Assembly: GCA_964586255.1 (NCBI GenBank) | Contig: CAZPGE010000004.1 | Span: 32,693-96,692, forward strand | Direction: 5' to 3' | Source of the DNA: an uncultured Candidatus Saccharibacteria bacterium | GTDB taxonomy: Bacteria; Patescibacteriota; Minisyncoccia; Phycocordibacterales; UBA2100 | Length of the DNA stretch: 64,000 nucleotides | In this document: piece after piece, positions 17,057 to 23,602 of the stretch | How the letters are laid out: each line of letters starts with the position of its first letter | Numbering within the stretch: position 1 is the first letter of the stretch | Program-made: the position numbers and the translations under genes | The notes under the pieces: model-generated | Seen by the model: only the letters and a program-made list of their open reading frames with translations | What the model was told of the DNA's origin: nothing | The model's database searches: none

Positions 17057-18076
17057 TTAAGCGATCAATTTCTTTTGGCCTGAGCCTGGCTTTTCGATGC
17101 CGAGATGTGCGTACCCCTTTTCCGTCACGGTGCGTCCCCGAGGAGTCCGTTCGATGAGACCGGTCTGCATGAGGTAGGGCTCGTTGACCTCTTCTATCGT
17201 CGCCTCTTCCTCAGAGAGTGCCGCTGCAATCGTCTTGAGTCCCACGGGACCGCCGCCAAACTTTTCGCAAAGCAGTGTGAGGATGTCGCGGTCGGTCTGG
17301 TTGAGACCGATTTCATCTATCTCAAGAAGTGCGAGTGCCTTTTTCACCGTCTTGATGTGGAGCGTCTCTTCGCTTACCGCGGCGAAGTCTCGCGCGCGCT
17401 TGAGGAGATAGTTGGCGGTGCGTGGCGTGGCGCGTGAACGACGCGCGACTTCGAGAAGTGAGTCGGCATCCATCTCGATGCCGAGGATTTTTGCAGAGCG
17501 ACGAAGTATTTCTGCTATCTCGGCATCGGTGTAGTACTGCAATCGGAATGTGCCGCCGGAGAATCGCGAGCGCAGCGGCGCGGAGAGCATCGATATTCTT
17601 GTTGTTGCAGCAATCAGAGTGAAAGGAGGGAGCTCGAGCTGCACCGTGCGCGCAGCGGGGCCTTTGCCGATGACGATATCGAGCACGCCCGCTTCCATAG
17701 CAGGATAGAGGACCTCTTCTATAGTGCGATTGAGGCGATGTATCTCGTCGATAAAGAGGACATCACCCGGTGAGAGGTTGGTGAGGATGGATGCGAGGTC
17801 GCCCACGCGCTCTATCGCAGGGCCCGATGTGCTGCGCAGGCTCGCACCAATCTCTTTTGCCATGAGATGTGCGAGCGTGGTCTTACCAAGACCCGGTGGA
17901 CCATAGAGGAGCACGTGCTCTGGCTGATGATTGCGCCCCTTTGCGGCGGTGAGGAGGATGCGAAGGTTCTCTTTGATAGCCTCCTGGCCCACATATTCTT
18001 TCCACGAATCAGGGCGAAGCGCCTGGTCGAGGCTGCGGGGCGACTTTTCTATCTGTTTGTGTTCGGTATCGGTCAT
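17057..18076 (-). CDS. ruvB: Holliday junction branch-migration ATPase RuvB
   Basis: 'LLYGPPGLGKTTLA', 'LFIDEIHRL', sensor/arginine finger, and C-terminal winged helix. Confidence 0.9.
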   Translation of the reverse strand: MTDTEHKQIEKSPRSLDQALRPDSWKEYVGQEAIKENLRILLTAAKGRNHQPEHVLLYGPPGLGKTTLAHLMAKEIGASLRSTSGPAIERVGDLASILTNLSPGDVLFIDEIHRLNRTIEEVLYPAMEAGVLDIVIGKGPAARTVQLELPPFTLIAATTRISMLSAPLRSRFSGGTFRLQYYTDAEIAEILRRSAKILGIEMDADSLLEVARRSRATPRTANYLLKRARDFAAVSEETLHIKTVKKALALLEIDEIGLNQTDRDILTLLCEKFGGGPVGLKTIAAALSEEEATIEEVNEPYLMQTGLIERTPRGRTVTEKGYAHLGIEKPGSGQKKLIA

Positions 18077-18120
18077 ACGGAGGCTCTACGAAGCCCTGAG
18101 GAGGGGAGCGAAGAGGCTGC

Positions 18121-18148
18121 TTGACAAATGGCTCTAATATGCTATATT
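18121..18148 (+). promoter_or_regulatory. sigma70-like promoter (TTGACA, 16-nt spacer, TATATT)
   Basis: Consensus -35 and near-consensus -10. Transcription would run toward the 18413 membrane-protein gene. Confidence 0.35.
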
Positions 18149-18412
18149 GGAGAGAGAAGCGGAATCAACCCCGCTTTTTCCTTTTGTAGAGACGCATAGC
18201 TTCGGGCAATGGTGGTTTTTCCAAGGACGTGGTGGCGCCGCTGCCACTATCCTCAGGTCCAGACTGCAACATTCGCCAGAATGCATTGCCCGAAATTGTG
18301 CGTCTCCAACTCCTGTTTGCAATCTAACACCGCATTGCGCTCGCGCAATGCGGATTTGTGGTCTAAACATATGCACCTGCGTGCGGTGGAGTGCGCCTGC
18401 GCGCTGCTATGA

Positions 18413-18853
18413 TTGCGATACATGCCCACAGCAAAGAAGCAGTCGGCCAATTGGCGCATCGCCGCAGTACACGCCCTCATCGTCGGGCTTGCTGTACCGT
18501 TTGTCGGCGGTTTGGCGCTCACTTTTTTCTACTATTACGCGCTTCCAGTGCTCACCGATACGACATATCTCCTGCTCGGTGTGGGCGAGACGATGATGCT
18601 GACTTTCATCGGCGTCGTACTGGGTGCGAAGTATATTCGTAGAAAATATCGAGTCTCCGACGCATCGTCCATCGTAAATCTTTCGACCGCATACGTCGTC
18701 GTGCTCACGGGTCTGTGGATGAGCGCCGATATGTTCTTCCTCTCGCAGCTTGCAGAAGTGCCTACTATCGAGATGGCAATCGCGTCCGCCGAGTCCGCTC
18801 TGGGAATCTTGGTGTTCTATTTCGCGAGTAAAAAATACATTCGCGCAAACTAG
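18413..18853 (+). CDS. hypothetical integral membrane protein
   Basis: Four hydrophobic helices. No recognisable family. Confidence 0.45.
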   Translation: MRYMPTAKKQSANWRIAAVHALIVGLAVPFVGGLALTFFYYYALPVLTDTTYLLLGVGETMMLTFIGVVLGAKYIRRKYRVSDASSIVNLSTAYVVVLTGLWMSADMFFLSQLAEVPTIEMAIASAESALGILVFYFASKKYIRAN

Positions 18854-18930
18854 CGAATCAATATATTAAAAAGATTTCAGGCGCCGCTTCGAAAGAAGCG
18901 ACGCCCGTTGTACATGTCGTCGATGCCGCG

Positions 18931-19386
18931 TCAGGCGGCGATGGCGATGCGTTCGCTCGTATACATCACGCGCTGCGTGAGCCGGCGTGCGGAGTCCTCG
19001 GCGGCGAGGATGTCGAGCCAGGCCTTGGTCAGGGCGGCGTACTCGGCGTCGGCGCCGCTGGTGCCATGGCTGTAGGCGTAGAAGCCCAGATCGGCGGCCT
19101 GCTTGTAGGTCTCGAGCAAGCGGCCCTTGCCCATGTTGGCATTGAACGAGCCGTAGACCTGACCGACGACGCACCCGCAGTCGTACTTGATGTCGAGCGA
19201 GCCGCCGTCAATCCTGGAGCGCCAGCCGGGTTCGGTGTTGTCCATGAACGCGATGCCGGCCATAGCGCGCTCGTGCACGGTCGGTCCGGAAGAAGCGATT
19301 TGCAACATCTTGCAGTCCCTTTCCTGGTTGCGGGGGCTCCTAGACCCTCCAATCAAATTAGTAGCATCCCCGGGAATATCCCGCAA
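18931..19386 (-). CDS. hypothetical protein (high-GC island gene A)
   Basis: High GC (about 64%) with strong GC3. Terminator hairpin downstream (about 18878-18905). No recognisable family. Confidence 0.4.
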   Translation of the reverse strand: MRDIPGDATNLIGGSRSPRNQERDCKMLQIASSGPTVHERAMAGIAFMDNTEPGWRSRIDGGSLDIKYDCGCVVGQVYGSFNANMGKGRLLETYKQAADLGFYAYSHGTSGADAEYAALTKAWLDILAAEDSARRLTQRVMYTSERIAIAA

Positions 19387-19399
19387 TCATTCCGCGCAC

Positions 19400-19437
19400 C
19401 TACGAAATCGTCTCAAGCATGACCTCATTGTTGAGGT
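19400..19437. repeat. 38-bp direct repeat: duplicated copy of the 3' end of pilB (second copy at 19956-19993, 36/38 identical)
   Basis: CTACGAAATCGTCTCAAGCATGACCTC[A/G]T[T/C]GTTGAGGT. The 19956 copy encodes ...NDEVMLETIS* of pilB. The 19400 copy is non-coding. Confidence 0.65.
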
Positions 19438-19458
19438 TTTGTAATCTAAAAAGAATAG

Positions 19459-19481
19459 GGCGCCGGCAGAGTGCCGGCGCC
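19459..19481 (-). terminator. intrinsic terminator downstream of island gene B
   Basis: GGCGCCGGC-agagt-GCCGGCGCC hairpin followed by a T-run on the minus strand. Confidence 0.5.
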
Positions 19482-19500
19482 TGATTTCGTCCACCTGAGG

Positions 19501-19884
19501 TCAGAGAGACCTGCGCAGATGCGCTTCCCAGAAGGACTGAAGCGTGCCGTACATGGTGTTGGGATCGTTCTCATCCCTCGCAAGCCCGTAGGCGATGCCG
19601 ATGCGATACGACATGTCGGCGCTGAGCAGAGCATCAGCAAACGTGAGGCCCTCCTGGCTGATGATCAGCGCCTTGAGCCTATCCACGTCCTGGAACATTC
19701 CCGTGCGGTGCGCCGTCTCGACGACGGCAAGCATGCACTTGTGCGGGTCGGCCATGACGAGAGGGCAGCGAGATGCGACCTGCCGCCACCACGGCCGCTT
19801 CGTGTCGAAGTGGTTCGCAATACCTCTCAAGACACGGCGCCTTGCAAGGCGGTTTTCGGCTTCCTTCGCTTGAACAGCGTTCAT
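19501..19884 (-). CDS. hypothetical protein (high-GC island gene B, 127 aa)
   Basis: High-GC ORF between the two copies of the pilB 3'-end repeat. Has its own terminator. Confidence 0.4.
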   Translation of the reverse strand: MNAVQAKEAENRLARRRVLRGIANHFDTKRPWWRQVASRCPLVMADPHKCMLAVVETAHRTGMFQDVDRLKALIISQEGLTFADALLSADMSYRIGIAYGLARDENDPNTMYGTLQSFWEAHLRRSL

Positions 19885-19955
19885 CGAGAATCTCCCTTGT
19901 GCTGCGTACTACGAGCAGTGAATAGTAGTATCACCGGGGCTGAGGTAGGTCAACG

Positions 19956-21647
19956 CTACGAAATCGTCTCAAGCATGACCTCGTCGTTGAGGTCGACGAC
20001 GCGGGAGAGTTCGTCGTACGAGGTGACACCTTGGAGTATCTTCACCGCACCGTCTTGTGACATGCGGCGGATTTTCTGATGCTTCGCTGCGGCCCAGATA
20101 TCGCGTTCGCTCGATGAGTGGCGCACGCACTCTTCTATTTCTTTATCCATAAGAATCACTTCCACTACGGCGATGCGTCCTTTGTATCCGAGGCCGCCGC
20201 ATTTGTCGCAGCCTTTGGGGAGCCACATGGTGTCGCGATTTTGCGGGAGCTCATCGGCGTGCGGTATGTGCGCGAGGAGCTGCTCCATCTTCGTCTTGAT
20301 ATCGCCGGTAATCGGTGTCGGTACGCGGCACACGGGGCAGAGGCGGCGCACGAGGCGCTGCGCCATCGCGGTCGTGAGAGCAGCGCCGAGGATGTCCGGC
20401 GCGACACCCATATCGACGAGGCGGGGGAATGTACCTGCTGCATCGTTGGTGTGTAGCGTGGAGAACACGAGGTGACCGGTAAGCGATGCGTTGACCGCCG
20501 TCGAAGCGACTTCAGCATCGCGGATTTCGCCGACCATGATGATGTCGGGGTCTTGGCGGAGTGTGGAGCGGAGGCCCTGTGCAAAGGTGTAATCCCGTGA
20601 GACTTGTGTCTGCACGATACCGGGCAGGTGGTATTCGACCGGGTCTTCGATGGTGACTATCTTTATTTCCGGTGAGTGCACTTGGCGCAAGAATGCGTAG
20701 AGTGTCGTCGTCTTACCGCTGCCGGTCGGTCCTGTGTTGAGAATCATACCGTTGGGCTTTGCGATTTCTTTCGCGAAAATATCCATGAGGTATTTGTCGA
20801 AGCCGAGCGCTTCCATCGGGAGTGCAATCGTCGTCGGGTCGAGGAGGCGCATGACGATAGTCTCTGCGTACGAGCCTGGGAGTACCGATGCGCGTATTTC
20901 GACTTCTTTACCACCCACCACGATAGAGAAGCGGCCGTCTTGTGCCGCGTTTTTGATGTTGAGCTTGAGGCCCGAGAGCAGCTTGAGGCGGCTCGACACG
21001 AGTGAGTATGTGGCGGCGTCAAACATGAGCACCTCCACGAGCACGCCGTCGAGGCGATAGCGCATACGCACACCTTCTTCTTCCGGCTCGAGGTGCACGT
21101 CGGATGCACCGAGCGCGAGTGCGCCGGCCATGATGATTTCGAGCACGCGTGAGATGCGGTGCGCGTCTTTGCTGCCCGTGTGGCTCGCAATCTCTGTCTT
21201 TACATCCTGGAGCGTCTTGAGCTTCTCAAGCATTTGTTGAATCGTCTCGTTGGAGAGGGTGAGGATGCCTGCTTCCGTCTCGGTCGCGTATGAAAGGTCG
21301 TGAAAGCGGTCCCACGCGTGTTCGAGCGAGGCCTGAGAGACGATAAAGCGCCGCACCTCGTAGCCGAGGCGTTCGATAGTCTGGAGCGACTTGAGCGAAT
21401 CCTCGCGCTCTGGAGCGCGCATTCCTACGAAAATGATTTTATTCACCTTGCGAAAAGGGGCGATCTCCACCGCGCGCGCCTCGTCCTCAGGTACGAGCTT
21501 GAGCGCATCGGTATCGATGGATTTGCTCGTAAGGTCGACGTACTCGACGCCGTATCGATGCGAGAGCATCTCGGCGAGCTGCTCCTCCTCTTTTGCGCGC
21601 AGCTCAGTCAGGCGCTCCGCTGCTTTCTTGTCGTTGAACGTCGCCAT
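19956..21647 (-). CDS. pilB: type IV pilus assembly ATPase PilB (GspE family)
   Basis: 'GPTGSGKTTTL' Walker A, Asp/His boxes, and a tetracysteine 'CPVC...CDKCGG'. ATG at 21647; the ORF track extends to an upstream GTG at 21665. Confidence 0.85.
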   Translation of the reverse strand: MATFNDKKAAERLTELRAKEEEQLAEMLSHRYGVEYVDLTSKSIDTDALKLVPEDEARAVEIAPFRKVNKIIFVGMRAPEREDSLKSLQTIERLGYEVRRFIVSQASLEHAWDRFHDLSYATETEAGILTLSNETIQQMLEKLKTLQDVKTEIASHTGSKDAHRISRVLEIIMAGALALGASDVHLEPEEEGVRMRYRLDGVLVEVLMFDAATYSLVSSRLKLLSGLKLNIKNAAQDGRFSIVVGGKEVEIRASVLPGSYAETIVMRLLDPTTIALPMEALGFDKYLMDIFAKEIAKPNGMILNTGPTGSGKTTTLYAFLRQVHSPEIKIVTIEDPVEYHLPGIVQTQVSRDYTFAQGLRSTLRQDPDIIMVGEIRDAEVASTAVNASLTGHLVFSTLHTNDAAGTFPRLVDMGVAPDILGAALTTAMAQRLVRRLCPVCRVPTPITGDIKTKMEQLLAHIPHADELPQNRDTMWLPKGCDKCGGLGYKGRIAVVEVILMDKEIEECVRHSSSERDIWAAAKHQKIRRMSQDGAVKILQGVTSYDELSRVVDLNDEVMLETIS

Positions 21648-21703
21648 GGCGCTATTGTAACGCACTTCGCTCGTGAACGAGGTGTTACAATTTGCTCATC
21701 TAT

Positions 21704-23602
21704 ATGAGTGAGGCCCCCAAAAGAGAACGACGTTTGAGCACTGAGCCTCACGAAGAATTTGGATTGGGTCACGAAGCGCCCGTGAGCGACTTGGTGAGTG
21801 TTAATCGGAACGGAGAAGAGGTCTGGGTACATCCCGACGAAGTGGCGCAAGTGCTGAGTGACGCCAAAAAGGCACCTTCTCCCAGTGAGTCGGGACCATC
21901 GCCTGACTCGAAGCGAACGGGACCCGAAATCCCCGCCGGAAAGAAGCCGAGAGAAGCGTTTCTGAGTGGGGTGCGTGAAGTCGGTCGCAACTTTGGACCC
22001 GGCGGACACAAGGTAAAAGACGAGAGCGTCTTTAGGGCGGCACTCGGGAAGTATGCCGACTACCGTACACGGTGGGGAGGCGCGGAAGCGTTTGCCGCGG
22101 CCGTGAACGATCTCGAAGTTGACGATGTGAAAGCATTCCGCGAACGCACTACGGAGCTTGAACAGGAGCTTGCCGATAAAAACCTCTCCAAGCCCGAAGC
22201 ACCGGAAAGTTCGACGAACTCTCGCCCAGGAGAAGCGCCTGACGCTACAGGGCGCATGACAGAAGAGGAGCTGCTTAAAGGTCTTGAGGGACTATCGGAG
22301 CCAGAGGCAGCGTCCAATACCATCCCGCCCCACTTCGAGACAGCATATAAGCGACTCGTAGAGAAATTTAGAAAAGATGGAACGCGTCGTGAGGATCAAA
22401 TACCGCTCGCATCGAGAGGTGTGATTGGGAATAGTGAGTACGCAGCGTTCAAAGCATTCGTCGACGAGCGAGACGCAGCGGCTGAGCGAGCAAAACAGGC
22501 AGCAAAGAGCGCGAGAAAAAGCGATGGCGGAAGTGCGGGAAAAGAAAAGGGTCCTGCACCGAAGGAGTCGGCCAAAGACAGAGATGCGCGACTCGCGGTT
22601 CTCGCCGACGATTTCGACAAGAAGGCCGGAGCCGATAATTCGATCGCTATGGACTTGTTTCAAGACATCGACGCGACACTCTCAGATGAAGAGAGAGGTA
22701 TCTTTATCGAAAAAGTACGAGGCCTCGGCTGGAAAATAAACGGCGATGTCCATCAAGTGCCCGGAGCTCTCGAGCTCATACCGCTTGGTAACACGGCAGA
22801 GAAGCTTACCGAAGCGCTCGGAGCGCCAGCAGGTAAAGTCGACGGGATTCCGTTTTGGGTACTTGAAAATGGTGATGGCGTAATGCTCAGTGGTGGCCCG
22901 CAAGAGGGGCGCTATCCGCAGCGATATCAAGACGGTGGGTTCTCGGAAATCCGGGGCTCACTCTATGAATACAAAGACGGGAAATTCCGAAAAATAAGTG
23001 AAAAAGAAGTCGCGGCGCGTCGTGCTGCTGCTATCGCCGTAAATGAGCAAGACAAGGCTGCGTCGAAAGAGCAGCTAAGAGAAAAGGCTAAGCGAGAGCG
23101 TACACAACCAGAGCCGGAAAGAGATCGCATAGAGCCAGAGGAGCGCGCGGCTGAGCGACCGGCACGCGACGAAACTCGTAGGGAGCGCCCTGAGGCGCGC
23201 AGGGAGGAGCGCGCCGAGAGGGAAAGCTCAGAGAAATCGCGCTCGTTTGAGGAGGCGCTCAAGATATTTGTGAAGACCTACAGCAAAGAAAAAAGAAATG
23301 CGGGGAGAGCCTTCCGCGATGCGATAAGCGGCTTGTCGGACAAAAATAGAAAGAGACTCATCGAATTTGCCGTCGAGACCACTGATATACCACGCCCAAT
23401 TCTCGAGCGCATACATCGTGACGTCGGTGATGAGAGCGAACGTGACGAAAGTAGCGATGGAGTAGCGCGCCCGGCACCGGTAGAGCGTGAAGTCGACAGG
23501 ATGCTCTCCGGTCGCGCGCAGCCACGTGTGAGCGAGCGTAGGGAATCACGAGAGAGTGAAAATATCGACGACGAGATAGATAGAATGCTCGGACTCAAAT
23601 AG
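21704..23602 (+). CDS. hypothetical highly charged (E/R/K-rich) protein, about 632 aa
   Basis: Long ORF, divergent from pilB. Low-complexity ER-rich segment. No recognisable domain. Confidence 0.5.
   Translation: MSEAPKRERRLSTEPHEEFGLGHEAPVSDLVSVNRNGEEVWVHPDEVAQVLSDAKKAPSPSESGPSPDSKRTGPEIPAGKKPREAFLSGVREVGRNFGPGGHKVKDESVFRAALGKYADYRTRWGGAEAFAAAVNDLEVDDVKAFRERTTELEQELADKNLSKPEAPESSTNSRPGEAPDATGRMTEEELLKGLEGLSEPEAASNTIPPHFETAYKRLVEKFRKDGTRREDQIPLASRGVIGNSEYAAFKAFVDERDAAAERAKQAAKSARKSDGGSAGKEKGPAPKESAKDRDARLAVLADDFDKKAGADNSIAMDLFQDIDATLSDEERGIFIEKVRGLGWKINGDVHQVPGALELIPLGNTAEKLTEALGAPAGKVDGIPFWVLENGDGVMLSGGPQEGRYPQRYQDGGFSEIRGSLYEYKDGKFRKISEKEVAARRAAAIAVNEQDKAASKEQLREKAKRERTQPEPERDRIEPEERAAERPARDETRRERPEARREERAERESSEKSRSFEEALKIFVKTYSKEKRNAGRAFRDAISGLSDKNRKRLIEFAVETTDIPRPILERIHRDVGDESERDESSDGVARPAPVEREVDRMLSGRAQPRVSERRESRESENIDDEIDRMLGLK

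Follow-up and report, generated by a model that had tools for sequence, protein, structure and literature searches.

In a 64,000-nt stretch of contig CAZPGE010000004.1 (hereafter the window), the 3′ end of the pilus ATPase gene pilB is present twice, with a small gene between the two copies. This 38-nt repeat is probably a recombination scar, left when two very different versions of one small gene, here called gene A and gene B, were stacked after pilB. The organism is a bacterium of the candidate phyla radiation (CPR), and its closest named records are a Minisyncoccota metagenome-assembled genome and Candidatus Kaiserbacteria GW2011_GWA2_52_12. Related loci that were compared with the window are designated by L numbers.

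The two copies of the direct repeat lie on the minus strand at 19956–19993 and 19400–19437, are spaced by 556 nt, and are identical at 36 of 38 positions. An earlier note on this DNA, made from the letters alone, had reported the same coordinates and identity, and both are confirmed. The exact 27-nt core of the repeat occurs at these two sites only within the window, and was matched in none of 100 shuffles. Copy 1 (19956–19993) encodes the last 12 codons and the TAG of pilB and is the working 3′ end of the gene. Copy 2 (19400–19437) is noncoding, a displaced relic of a pilB 3′ end that immediately precedes the promoter of gene B. Both mismatches between the copies sit within one codon. The pilB gene (19956–21647, minus strand) encodes a type IV pilus/T2SS-E ATPase with matches to PF00437 (T2SSE, PilB-type; E 2.4e-114) and MshEN, and 99.5–99.6% amino acid (aa) identity to the products in L001 and L002. 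A GTG at 21665 would lengthen its open reading frame (ORF), but the relatives begin with MATFNDKK (21647); the product is accordingly 563 or 569 aa. Beyond the pilB stop, the order is leader A, gene A, its terminator, a short tail, the relic, leader B, gene B, its terminator, and a convergent membrane gene.

An empty site was found in L012 and L011, where the gene B leader starts straight after the pilB stop. L012 can be aligned to the window through the pilB 3′ end (92.5% nt identity) and the TAG, and then continues directly into the gene B leader. Therefore, the window has exactly 556 extra nt, bounded by the repeat and comprising one repeat copy plus gene A with a promoter and a terminator. 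Relative to gene B, the real pilB end of L012 occupies the position of repeat copy 2. The earlier note had called for a comparison with related genomes, and in L012, where the gene A insert is absent and gene B follows pilB directly, its proposal of an insertion at the pilB terminus is borne out.

Three states of the interval after pilB were captured among genomes about 90% identical in nucleotides: empty, stacked, and replaced. The stacked state is that of the window, with pilB, gene A, the pilB relic, and gene B. Five contigs, assembled by two pipelines from separate samples, reproduce it exactly; as the same arrangement was assembled independently in five samples, it is no assembly artefact. 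In the replaced state, found in L001, L002, and L013, pilB is followed by gene A with a different C-terminal tail and then by the stop codon and terminator of gene B; a stretch of about 581 nt, beginning at gene A codon ~123 and reaching the last codons of gene B, is lacking. A shared ACGCATT heptamer is a candidate microhomology for the deletion breakpoints of L001 and L002, although the tails can be reconciled only with extra indels.

Alternative occupancy is also observed more widely. A B-type gene directly follows pilB in L008/L009, L019 (67% aa identity), and L010 (51%), as well as in L012 and L025. An A-type gene lies after pilB in L001, L002, L013, L022, and L023, and no gene is present in the interval in L016/L017. 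For gene A, only three clusters at 90% identity were found among 5.8 billion sequences, namely itself and relatives at 85% and 80%. A HMMER search with the gene A alignment returned 13 proteins at E ≤ 0.001, and contig DNA was read for three of the remote relatives, P0092, P0093, and P0101. P0092 (E 7.5e-19) is encoded directly 3′ of a T2SSE gene in L022; P0093 lies in L023 in the order polA-tsaE-pilB-[A-type]-membrane-ruvB; P0101 is the product of the third gene of an array in L024. All gene A relatives with readable contig DNA (L001, L002, L022, L023, and L024) are thus in the interval between pilB and ruvB of CPR genomes.

Several other fillings of this interval were noted. L024 (1–1450) carries three tandem family members, B-like, B-like, and A-like. 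Its genes 1 and 2 share 73–79% nt identity at a 490-nt period, which points to a local tandem duplication. The A-type gene of L024 is flanked by a perfect 35-nt terminator repeat (860–894 and 1387–1421). In L025, a B-type gene is accompanied by a third gene type, for which membership of the A/B family has only suggestive support (hhalign E 0.0016, probability 16%); a relic of pilB was not seen in this locus. In L018 (5530–6110), a ribbon-helix-helix (CopG-like) antitoxin gene is followed by a ParE/RelE-like toxin frame that is apparently frameshifted, the domains being assigned by eye from the translations.

Gene A (19501–19884, minus strand) encodes 127 aa, and copies 80–85% identical in aa lie after pilB in L001 and L002. 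Its 71-nt leader (19885–19955, minus strand) is conserved in these two loci and, as read from the sequence, contains a putative sigma-70-like promoter, with TTGACC (19953–19948), a 17-nt spacer, and TGa-TACTAC (19930–19925), and a ribosome-binding site (RBS), AAGGGAGA. The gene is followed by its intrinsic terminator, term1 (19459–19481, minus strand), a 10-bp GC-rich stem and then a T-run. Gene B (18931–19308, minus strand) encodes 125 aa and has homologues directly after pilB in several relatives. Its 91-nt leader (19309–19399, minus strand) carries a promoter, with TTGCGG (19386–19381), a 17-nt spacer, and TGc-TACTAA (19363–19358), and an RBS; its intrinsic terminator, term2, is a hairpin at 18878–18907 (minus strand) that is kept in L001, L002, and L012, and the convergent membrane gene ends just past it. 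The two small minus-strand genes with their own terminators described in the earlier note all exist. The second gene is probably shorter than was stated there: a minus-strand ORF at 18931–19386 exists, and the ATG at 19308 is the likelier start, backed by a AGGAAAGGGA RBS and an N-terminus conserved in homologues.

Comparison of the family profiles by hhalign relates A to B over nearly the full length (94.5% probability, E 7.6e-8). Their aa identity in the columns aligned by hhalign is about 19%, and the motifs common to both are GI..D...P.WR, an invariant Cys, GF, and Y..L...W; the leaders cannot be aligned with each other. A and B are thus probable remote homologues. A common promoter feature was also detected. 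The motif TGNTACTAHT occurs at two sites only in the 64-kb window, before gene A and before gene B, and the promoter-like pair is placed right after the pilB stop (gene A) or the pilB relic (gene B). The architecture TTGCRR / 16–17 nt / TGCTACTAA is kept before the B-type genes of L008, L010, and L012, and the genes of L024 are preceded by a similar pair, TTGCYG and TGCTACTA. TGNTACTAHT itself is seen again ahead of family members in L008, L010, L012, and L024. Separately, the 5′ leader of gene B was noticed to contain a short GC-rich hairpin-like element (19315–19345, minus strand), flanked by the -10 box and the RBS. It reads GGAGGGTCTAGGAGCCCCC in the window, GGGGCTCGGGGAGCCTCC in L008, and GGGTCACGGTGGCCC in L010, and is found at the same position in L012. 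The letters vary and, by inspection, the pairing potential seems to be retained in this candidate element.

A probable mark of its source lies at the far end of the insert. The terminator tail of a structured noncoding RNA (ncRNA; 18149–18362, plus strand; promoter 18121–18148, terminator 18330–18353), conserved beside ruvB, forms the right-hand boundary of the variable interval. The motif TTTAGACCACAAAWCC, the reverse complement of this tail at the start of the ncRNA element, occurs once per related locus searched and always at the ncRNA boundary. The window contains it twice, a normal copy at 18367 and a second copy (14 of 16 positions) at 19450–19435. This second copy is the tail TTTAGATTACAAAACC (19435–19450, minus strand), which has the gene A terminator on one side and the pilB relic on the other; the three bases that end it, ACC, are also the start of the overlap with repeat copy 2. 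The stem core of term1, GGCGCCG...CGGCGCC, resembles the slot-closing terminators of L008 and L010, which precede TTTAGACCACAAAWCC. From the sequence comparison, the 16-nt tail is best read as a relic of the right-hand boundary that marks an illegitimate junction. Cassette A, that is, gene A with its promoter and terminator, would then hold both edges of the slot, the pilB end and the ncRNA boundary, and therefore appears to have been copied from this locus in a related genome. For the same reason, the insert would be neither a mobile element nor host DNA.

The following course of events can be proposed. The interval from the pilB stop to the ncRNA beside ruvB is a variable slot in this Minisyncoccota/Kaiserbacteria-like CPR lineage. 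It is usually filled by one self-contained cassette, composed of a promoter with a TGNTACTA -10 region, a gene of about 125 aa, and an intrinsic terminator. The cassette gene would belong to one fast-evolving superfamily, with lineages carrying either the A-type or the B-type. In the window, gene B would be the ancestral resident of the slot, and a fragment from an A-type genome would have integrated into this B-type genome. The fragment would have comprised no less than the final 38 nt of pilB, together with gene A, its terminator, and 16 nt at the start of the ncRNA boundary. Homologous exchange in the pilB 3′ end, where the repeat lies and where L001, L002, L012, and L013 have 89–100% nt identity, would have joined one side. 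The other side would result from an illegitimate join at ACC(T) microhomology. The abrupt junction reads ...ACAAAACC/TCAAC..., where the slash marks the join, with a microhomology of 3–4 nt: the tail and the relic share ACC, or ACCT if the donor resembled L018, and 3–4 bases could be shared by chance. The fragment may have been circularised and then inserted by a single crossover. Alternatively, the end of a linear fragment may have been joined 38 nt upstream of the recipient pilB stop. The outcome would be an intact pilB, with the displaced pilB end left as a noncoding relic upstream of the gene B promoter and with gene B insulated by the gene A terminator. L001 and L002 would have lost sequence either at the time of the insertion, as is classical, or later, from a state resembling the window, and L024 would be a mirror case, in which the right-hand flank (the terminator) was duplicated. 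From comparative sequence we infer how recombination proceeded, how the DNA entered, and in which direction the event went.

An event of this type is in itself ordinary, of a known kind found here in a new locus and lineage. The type was reportedly described by de Vries and Wackernagel in 2002 as homology-facilitated illegitimate recombination (HFIR). As in HFIR, one border lies in a sequence homologous between donor and recipient, the pilB 3′ end; the few bases shared at the other border may be a microhomology or due to chance. The insert is recognizable as a donor segment contiguous with this anchor, as indicated by the A-type genes after pilB in L022 and L023 and by the right-boundary motif. 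The A-only loci L001 and L002, in which gene B is gone and the join falls within last codons, resemble the classical insertion with deletion. Homologous exchange at one end with an illegitimate join at a microhomology of 3–10 bp at the other has been described (PMC3240628). Circularisation of a fragment followed by a single crossover duplicates the homologous segment on both sides of the insert (PMC3240628), as is seen in the window. The retained homologous segment is 38 nt here, in contrast to 109–950 bp in the E. coli experiments (PMC3240628). In addition, the donor DNA here would be allelic to the recipient locus instead of being unrelated to it, and the evidence for the event is comparative sequence only. 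Natural competence has been shown in Patescibacteria (PMC10633639). DNA may possibly have entered by natural transformation, and we infer that competence could play a role at the pilB-ruvB slot.

Several points weigh against the stacking of cassette A by recombination. The exact donor arrangement, an A-type gene, term1, and then directly the ncRNA boundary, was found in no genome searched. The microhomology is only 3–4 nt, and 38 nt is short for a RecA-type exchange. Classical HFIR usually deletes recipient DNA and does not duplicate it (PMC3240628). The mirror event, with a B cassette placed behind a resident A, gives an identical sequence. A trans-acting site-specific recombinase could sit elsewhere in the genome, beyond the 64-kb window. 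The age of the relic must also be considered. For an event older than the split from L001 and L002 (dS, the number of synonymous substitutions per site, about 0.34–0.56), two differences would be a small number: at the dS of 0.3–0.56 between lineages, about 6–10 changes are expected in a neutral relic of that age. Therefore, the stacking is probably recent, or the relic is constrained. If the stacking is old, the relic has been kept similar either by gene conversion or by selection. A pilB end immediately before the gene B promoter is the natural arrangement in every B-type genome. Where pilB of the window differs from that of L012, the differences are distributed uniformly along the 492 nt that could be compared, and thus give no signal of a donor tract.

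Alternatively, gene A could be a non-autonomous mini-cassette that integrates site-specifically at an attachment (att) site in the pilB 3′ end by means of a recombinase encoded elsewhere, supplying a replacement pilB end. Like the elements that use tRNA- or tmRNA-type att sites, the insert is bounded exactly by direct repeats of the 3′ end of the target gene, and the gene is restored intact. Moreover, the repeat contains a small palindrome, GACCTC-N6-GAGGTC, and the A-type cassette of L024 is also bounded by a perfect direct repeat. We nevertheless consider this explanation unlikely. Unlike the known att elements, the insert is only 0.5 kb, with a 518-nt unique part whose single ORF, of 127 aa, is an orphan. 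No recombinase is present among the Pfam-annotated genes called within 10 kb on either side, and no terminal inverted repeats pair the two ends of 19438–19955. The bounding repeat is the pilB end in the window and the terminator in L024; consequently, there is no common att site, and the same att was not seen bounding independent insertions. Both mismatches of the repeat fall in the would-be spacer of the palindrome, and the 16-nt relic of the ncRNA boundary at the end of the cassette is left unexplained. The A-type and B-type genes could also have arisen in situ, by tandem duplication of the unit of pilB 3′ end, promoter, gene, and terminator, followed by divergence. Their probable homology, with the same cassette architecture and promoter motif, is in accord with such an origin, and genes 1 and 2 of L024 do look like a local tandem duplication. 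This is highly improbable for the window: against the 95% identity of the 38-nt repeat, that of the A and B proteins is only about 19%, and their leaders are unalignable. In addition, each type occurs alone in other genomes, and a relic of the ncRNA boundary lies inside the array. As for a chimeric metagenome assembly joining A-type and B-type strains, strain variants of the slot do exist, but the identical arrangement recurs in the five contigs, the longest exact shared run is 27 nt, and the junction of tail and relic occurs in neither simple allele; the chance of such a chimera is close to nil.

The earlier note had favored an island of two genes of foreign high-GC DNA, for instance from an actinobacterial host, inserted with target-site duplication. 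It had put the GC content of the segment at 63–65%; 59.8% was found for 18866–19993, with 65.3% for gene B, 60.7% for gene A, 55.6–57.9% for the flanks, as it had stated approximately, and 54.3% for the window. The strong GC content at third codon positions (GC3) that it had noticed is real: gene B (0.88) and gene A (0.77) have the two highest values of about 72 ORFs, far above the window mean (0.59, sd 0.056), with z of 5.2 and 3.1, respectively. Homologues of the B-type domain in Streptomyces phages and actinophage-like contigs also agree with a high-GC source. However, gene B lies outside the duplicated boundaries and is a syntenic resident after pilB in L008/L009, L010, L012, L019, and L025, so the two genes do not form one island. 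The B-type genes of relatives exceed their neighbors in GC3 in the same way (0.80 in L012, 0.88 in L008, 0.745 in L010, 0.85 in L024, and 0.84 in L025). Wherever contig DNA could be read, the relatives of gene A lie in CPR pilB-ruvB slots and have locally normal GC3: those of L022, L023, and L024 have 0.74–0.75, matching pilB and ruvB of those genomes (0.74–0.78), and gene A of the window fits the A-type and core genes of related CPR genomes (0.74–0.77). High GC3 is therefore no evidence of recent import, and the proposed high-GC host as the source of gene A is not upheld. An insertion at the pilB terminus did occur, with 556 extra nt relative to L012, but the duplication is not of the transposase type. 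A transposon or insertion sequence was rejected because gene A is the sole ORF between the repeats, neither a transposase nor inverted repeats are present, and a duplication of 38 nt greatly exceeds the short ones of 2–14 bp made by transposases. The empty site of L012 and the synteny of gene B largely refute a foreign two-gene island, which is very unlikely. Raised GC3 was also noted beyond the two genes, for 19956–21665 and 17057–18076: that of pilB is 0.72, above the window mean and less than those of genes A and B. A possible cause is gene conversion with a bias toward GC, at a locus prone to recombination.

Other known systems share some features with the locus. Integrons form arrays of small single-gene cassettes, each ending in a hairpin. 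The hairpins here, in contrast, are ordinary terminators of a GC stem and T-run, and the junctions differ between loci. The attC core has the consensus RYYYAAC/GTTRRRY, and the junctions of the window were judged by eye not to fit it. With no IntI nearby and a promoter before each cassette, an integron array was rejected. In the orphan modules of toxin tips and immunity genes of the contact-dependent growth inhibition (CDI) and Rhs systems, an incoming cassette recombines in the upstream gene, and the old 3′ end with its small gene is displaced and retained. The locus resembles these modules in that a displaced 3′ end is kept and arrays of divergent small genes are built. It differs in that pilB is no toxin and has an invariant C-terminus, and the relic is 38 nt of conserved sequence rather than a variable toxin tip. 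A toxin-antitoxin or immunity pair was likewise rejected: a terminator and a separate promoter lie between genes A and B, the two are probable homologues, and they have no domain matches.

Neither protein has a credible match in Pfam, PHROG, NCBIfam, or PADLOC, in agreement with the earlier note, which recognized no family. The toxin, immunity, and recombinase domains it had suggested looking for were found in neither protein with the same four resources. A PADLOC match of gene A to RmrT (14 bits, E 0.0066) was treated as noise. Scans of viral contigs gave no relatives of gene A or gene B, and phage genomes gave none of gene A. The ratio of nonsynonymous to synonymous substitution rates (dN/dS) is 0.34–0.45 for gene A and 0.27–0.48 for gene B, compared with 0.004–0.014 for pilB, where comparison with L001 and L002 gives 0.004–0.008, and 0.008–0.017 for ruvB. 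These values indicate that A and B are real genes, fast-evolving and under purifying but relaxed selection. The AlphaFold2 model of gene B (mean predicted local distance difference test score, pLDDT, 84) is a helical domain ending in a helix of about 40 residues, with no match among solved or viral folds; the model of gene A (pLDDT 46) was unusable.

The B-type domain is the N-terminal domain of Streptomyces-phage proteins of about 230 aa. For instance, gp85 of phage Stella is 42% identical to the B-type over 89 residues, and its C-terminal part corresponds to phrog_5368. The gp85 gene is surrounded by small hypothetical genes, and an ArdA-like anti-restriction gene is found a few genes away. 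A short B-type protein is encoded on an actinophage-like contig that carries WhiB. Beyond CPR genomes, members of the superfamily were seen in three settings only: Streptomyces phages, metagenomic contigs of similar size, and this one actinophage-like contig. The phage link concerns the deep origin of the family and not the insertion in the window. It is the sole support for a high-GC connection as raised in the earlier note, which does not hold for the insertion and survives in these distant relatives of gene B in phages of high-GC Streptomyces. The role of A and B might be related to conflict or interaction, a best guess of low confidence suggested by the fast evolution, the allelic turnover, and the homologues in an accessory-gene region of actinophages.

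The locus offers a nucleotide-resolved example of how CPR genomes may gain and lose small accessory genes without mobile-element machinery. Its by-products are perhaps more useful than the repeat itself: an uncharacterised superfamily of small proteins, encoded invariably after pilB in this clade and present also in actinophages, a family-specific promoter motif, and a covarying ncRNA outside Rfam. A broader view is that the pilB-ruvB slot could be a dedicated, recombination-driven diversity locus for arrays of this fast-evolving superfamily, with cassettes swapped between CPR strains and proteins that act in phage/host conflict or modulate PilB. This is speculative and rather unlikely. If true, swapping would perhaps proceed through pilus-dependent natural transformation, and the pilB end or the terminator hairpins might serve as promoter-upstream elements or recombination signals.

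The ncRNA at the edge of the slot deserves description of its own. It is about 210 nt long, lies between the membrane gene and ruvB, and is preceded by a near-consensus promoter (TTGACA, 16 nt, TATATT). A hairpin at its 5′ end is followed by a long core with branches and then by an intrinsic terminator. It was present beside ruvB in every related locus covering the interval. A scan of 17900–20100 with Rfam 15 gave no match at E ≤ 1. RNAalifold on seven ncRNA sequences predicted 70 pairs, of which 19 show compensatory changes.

The neighboring genes are also variable. The membrane protein gene (18422–18853, plus strand; 143 aa) is an optional occupant of the slot, present in L001, L002, L012, and L023 and absent from L008, L010, and L016. 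Downstream of the ncRNA terminator, no promoter of its own was detected for this gene in a consensus scan. Its product is fast-evolving, with 67–84% aa identity among genomes whose PilB proteins are more than 99% identical. On the other side, a Glu/Arg/Lys-rich protein of 636 aa is encoded divergently from pilB (21692–23602, plus strand). It has no Pfam match and is only 84% identical to its orthologues in L001 and L002. The counterpart in L010 is much shorter, with 362 aa and 36% identity over part of its length.

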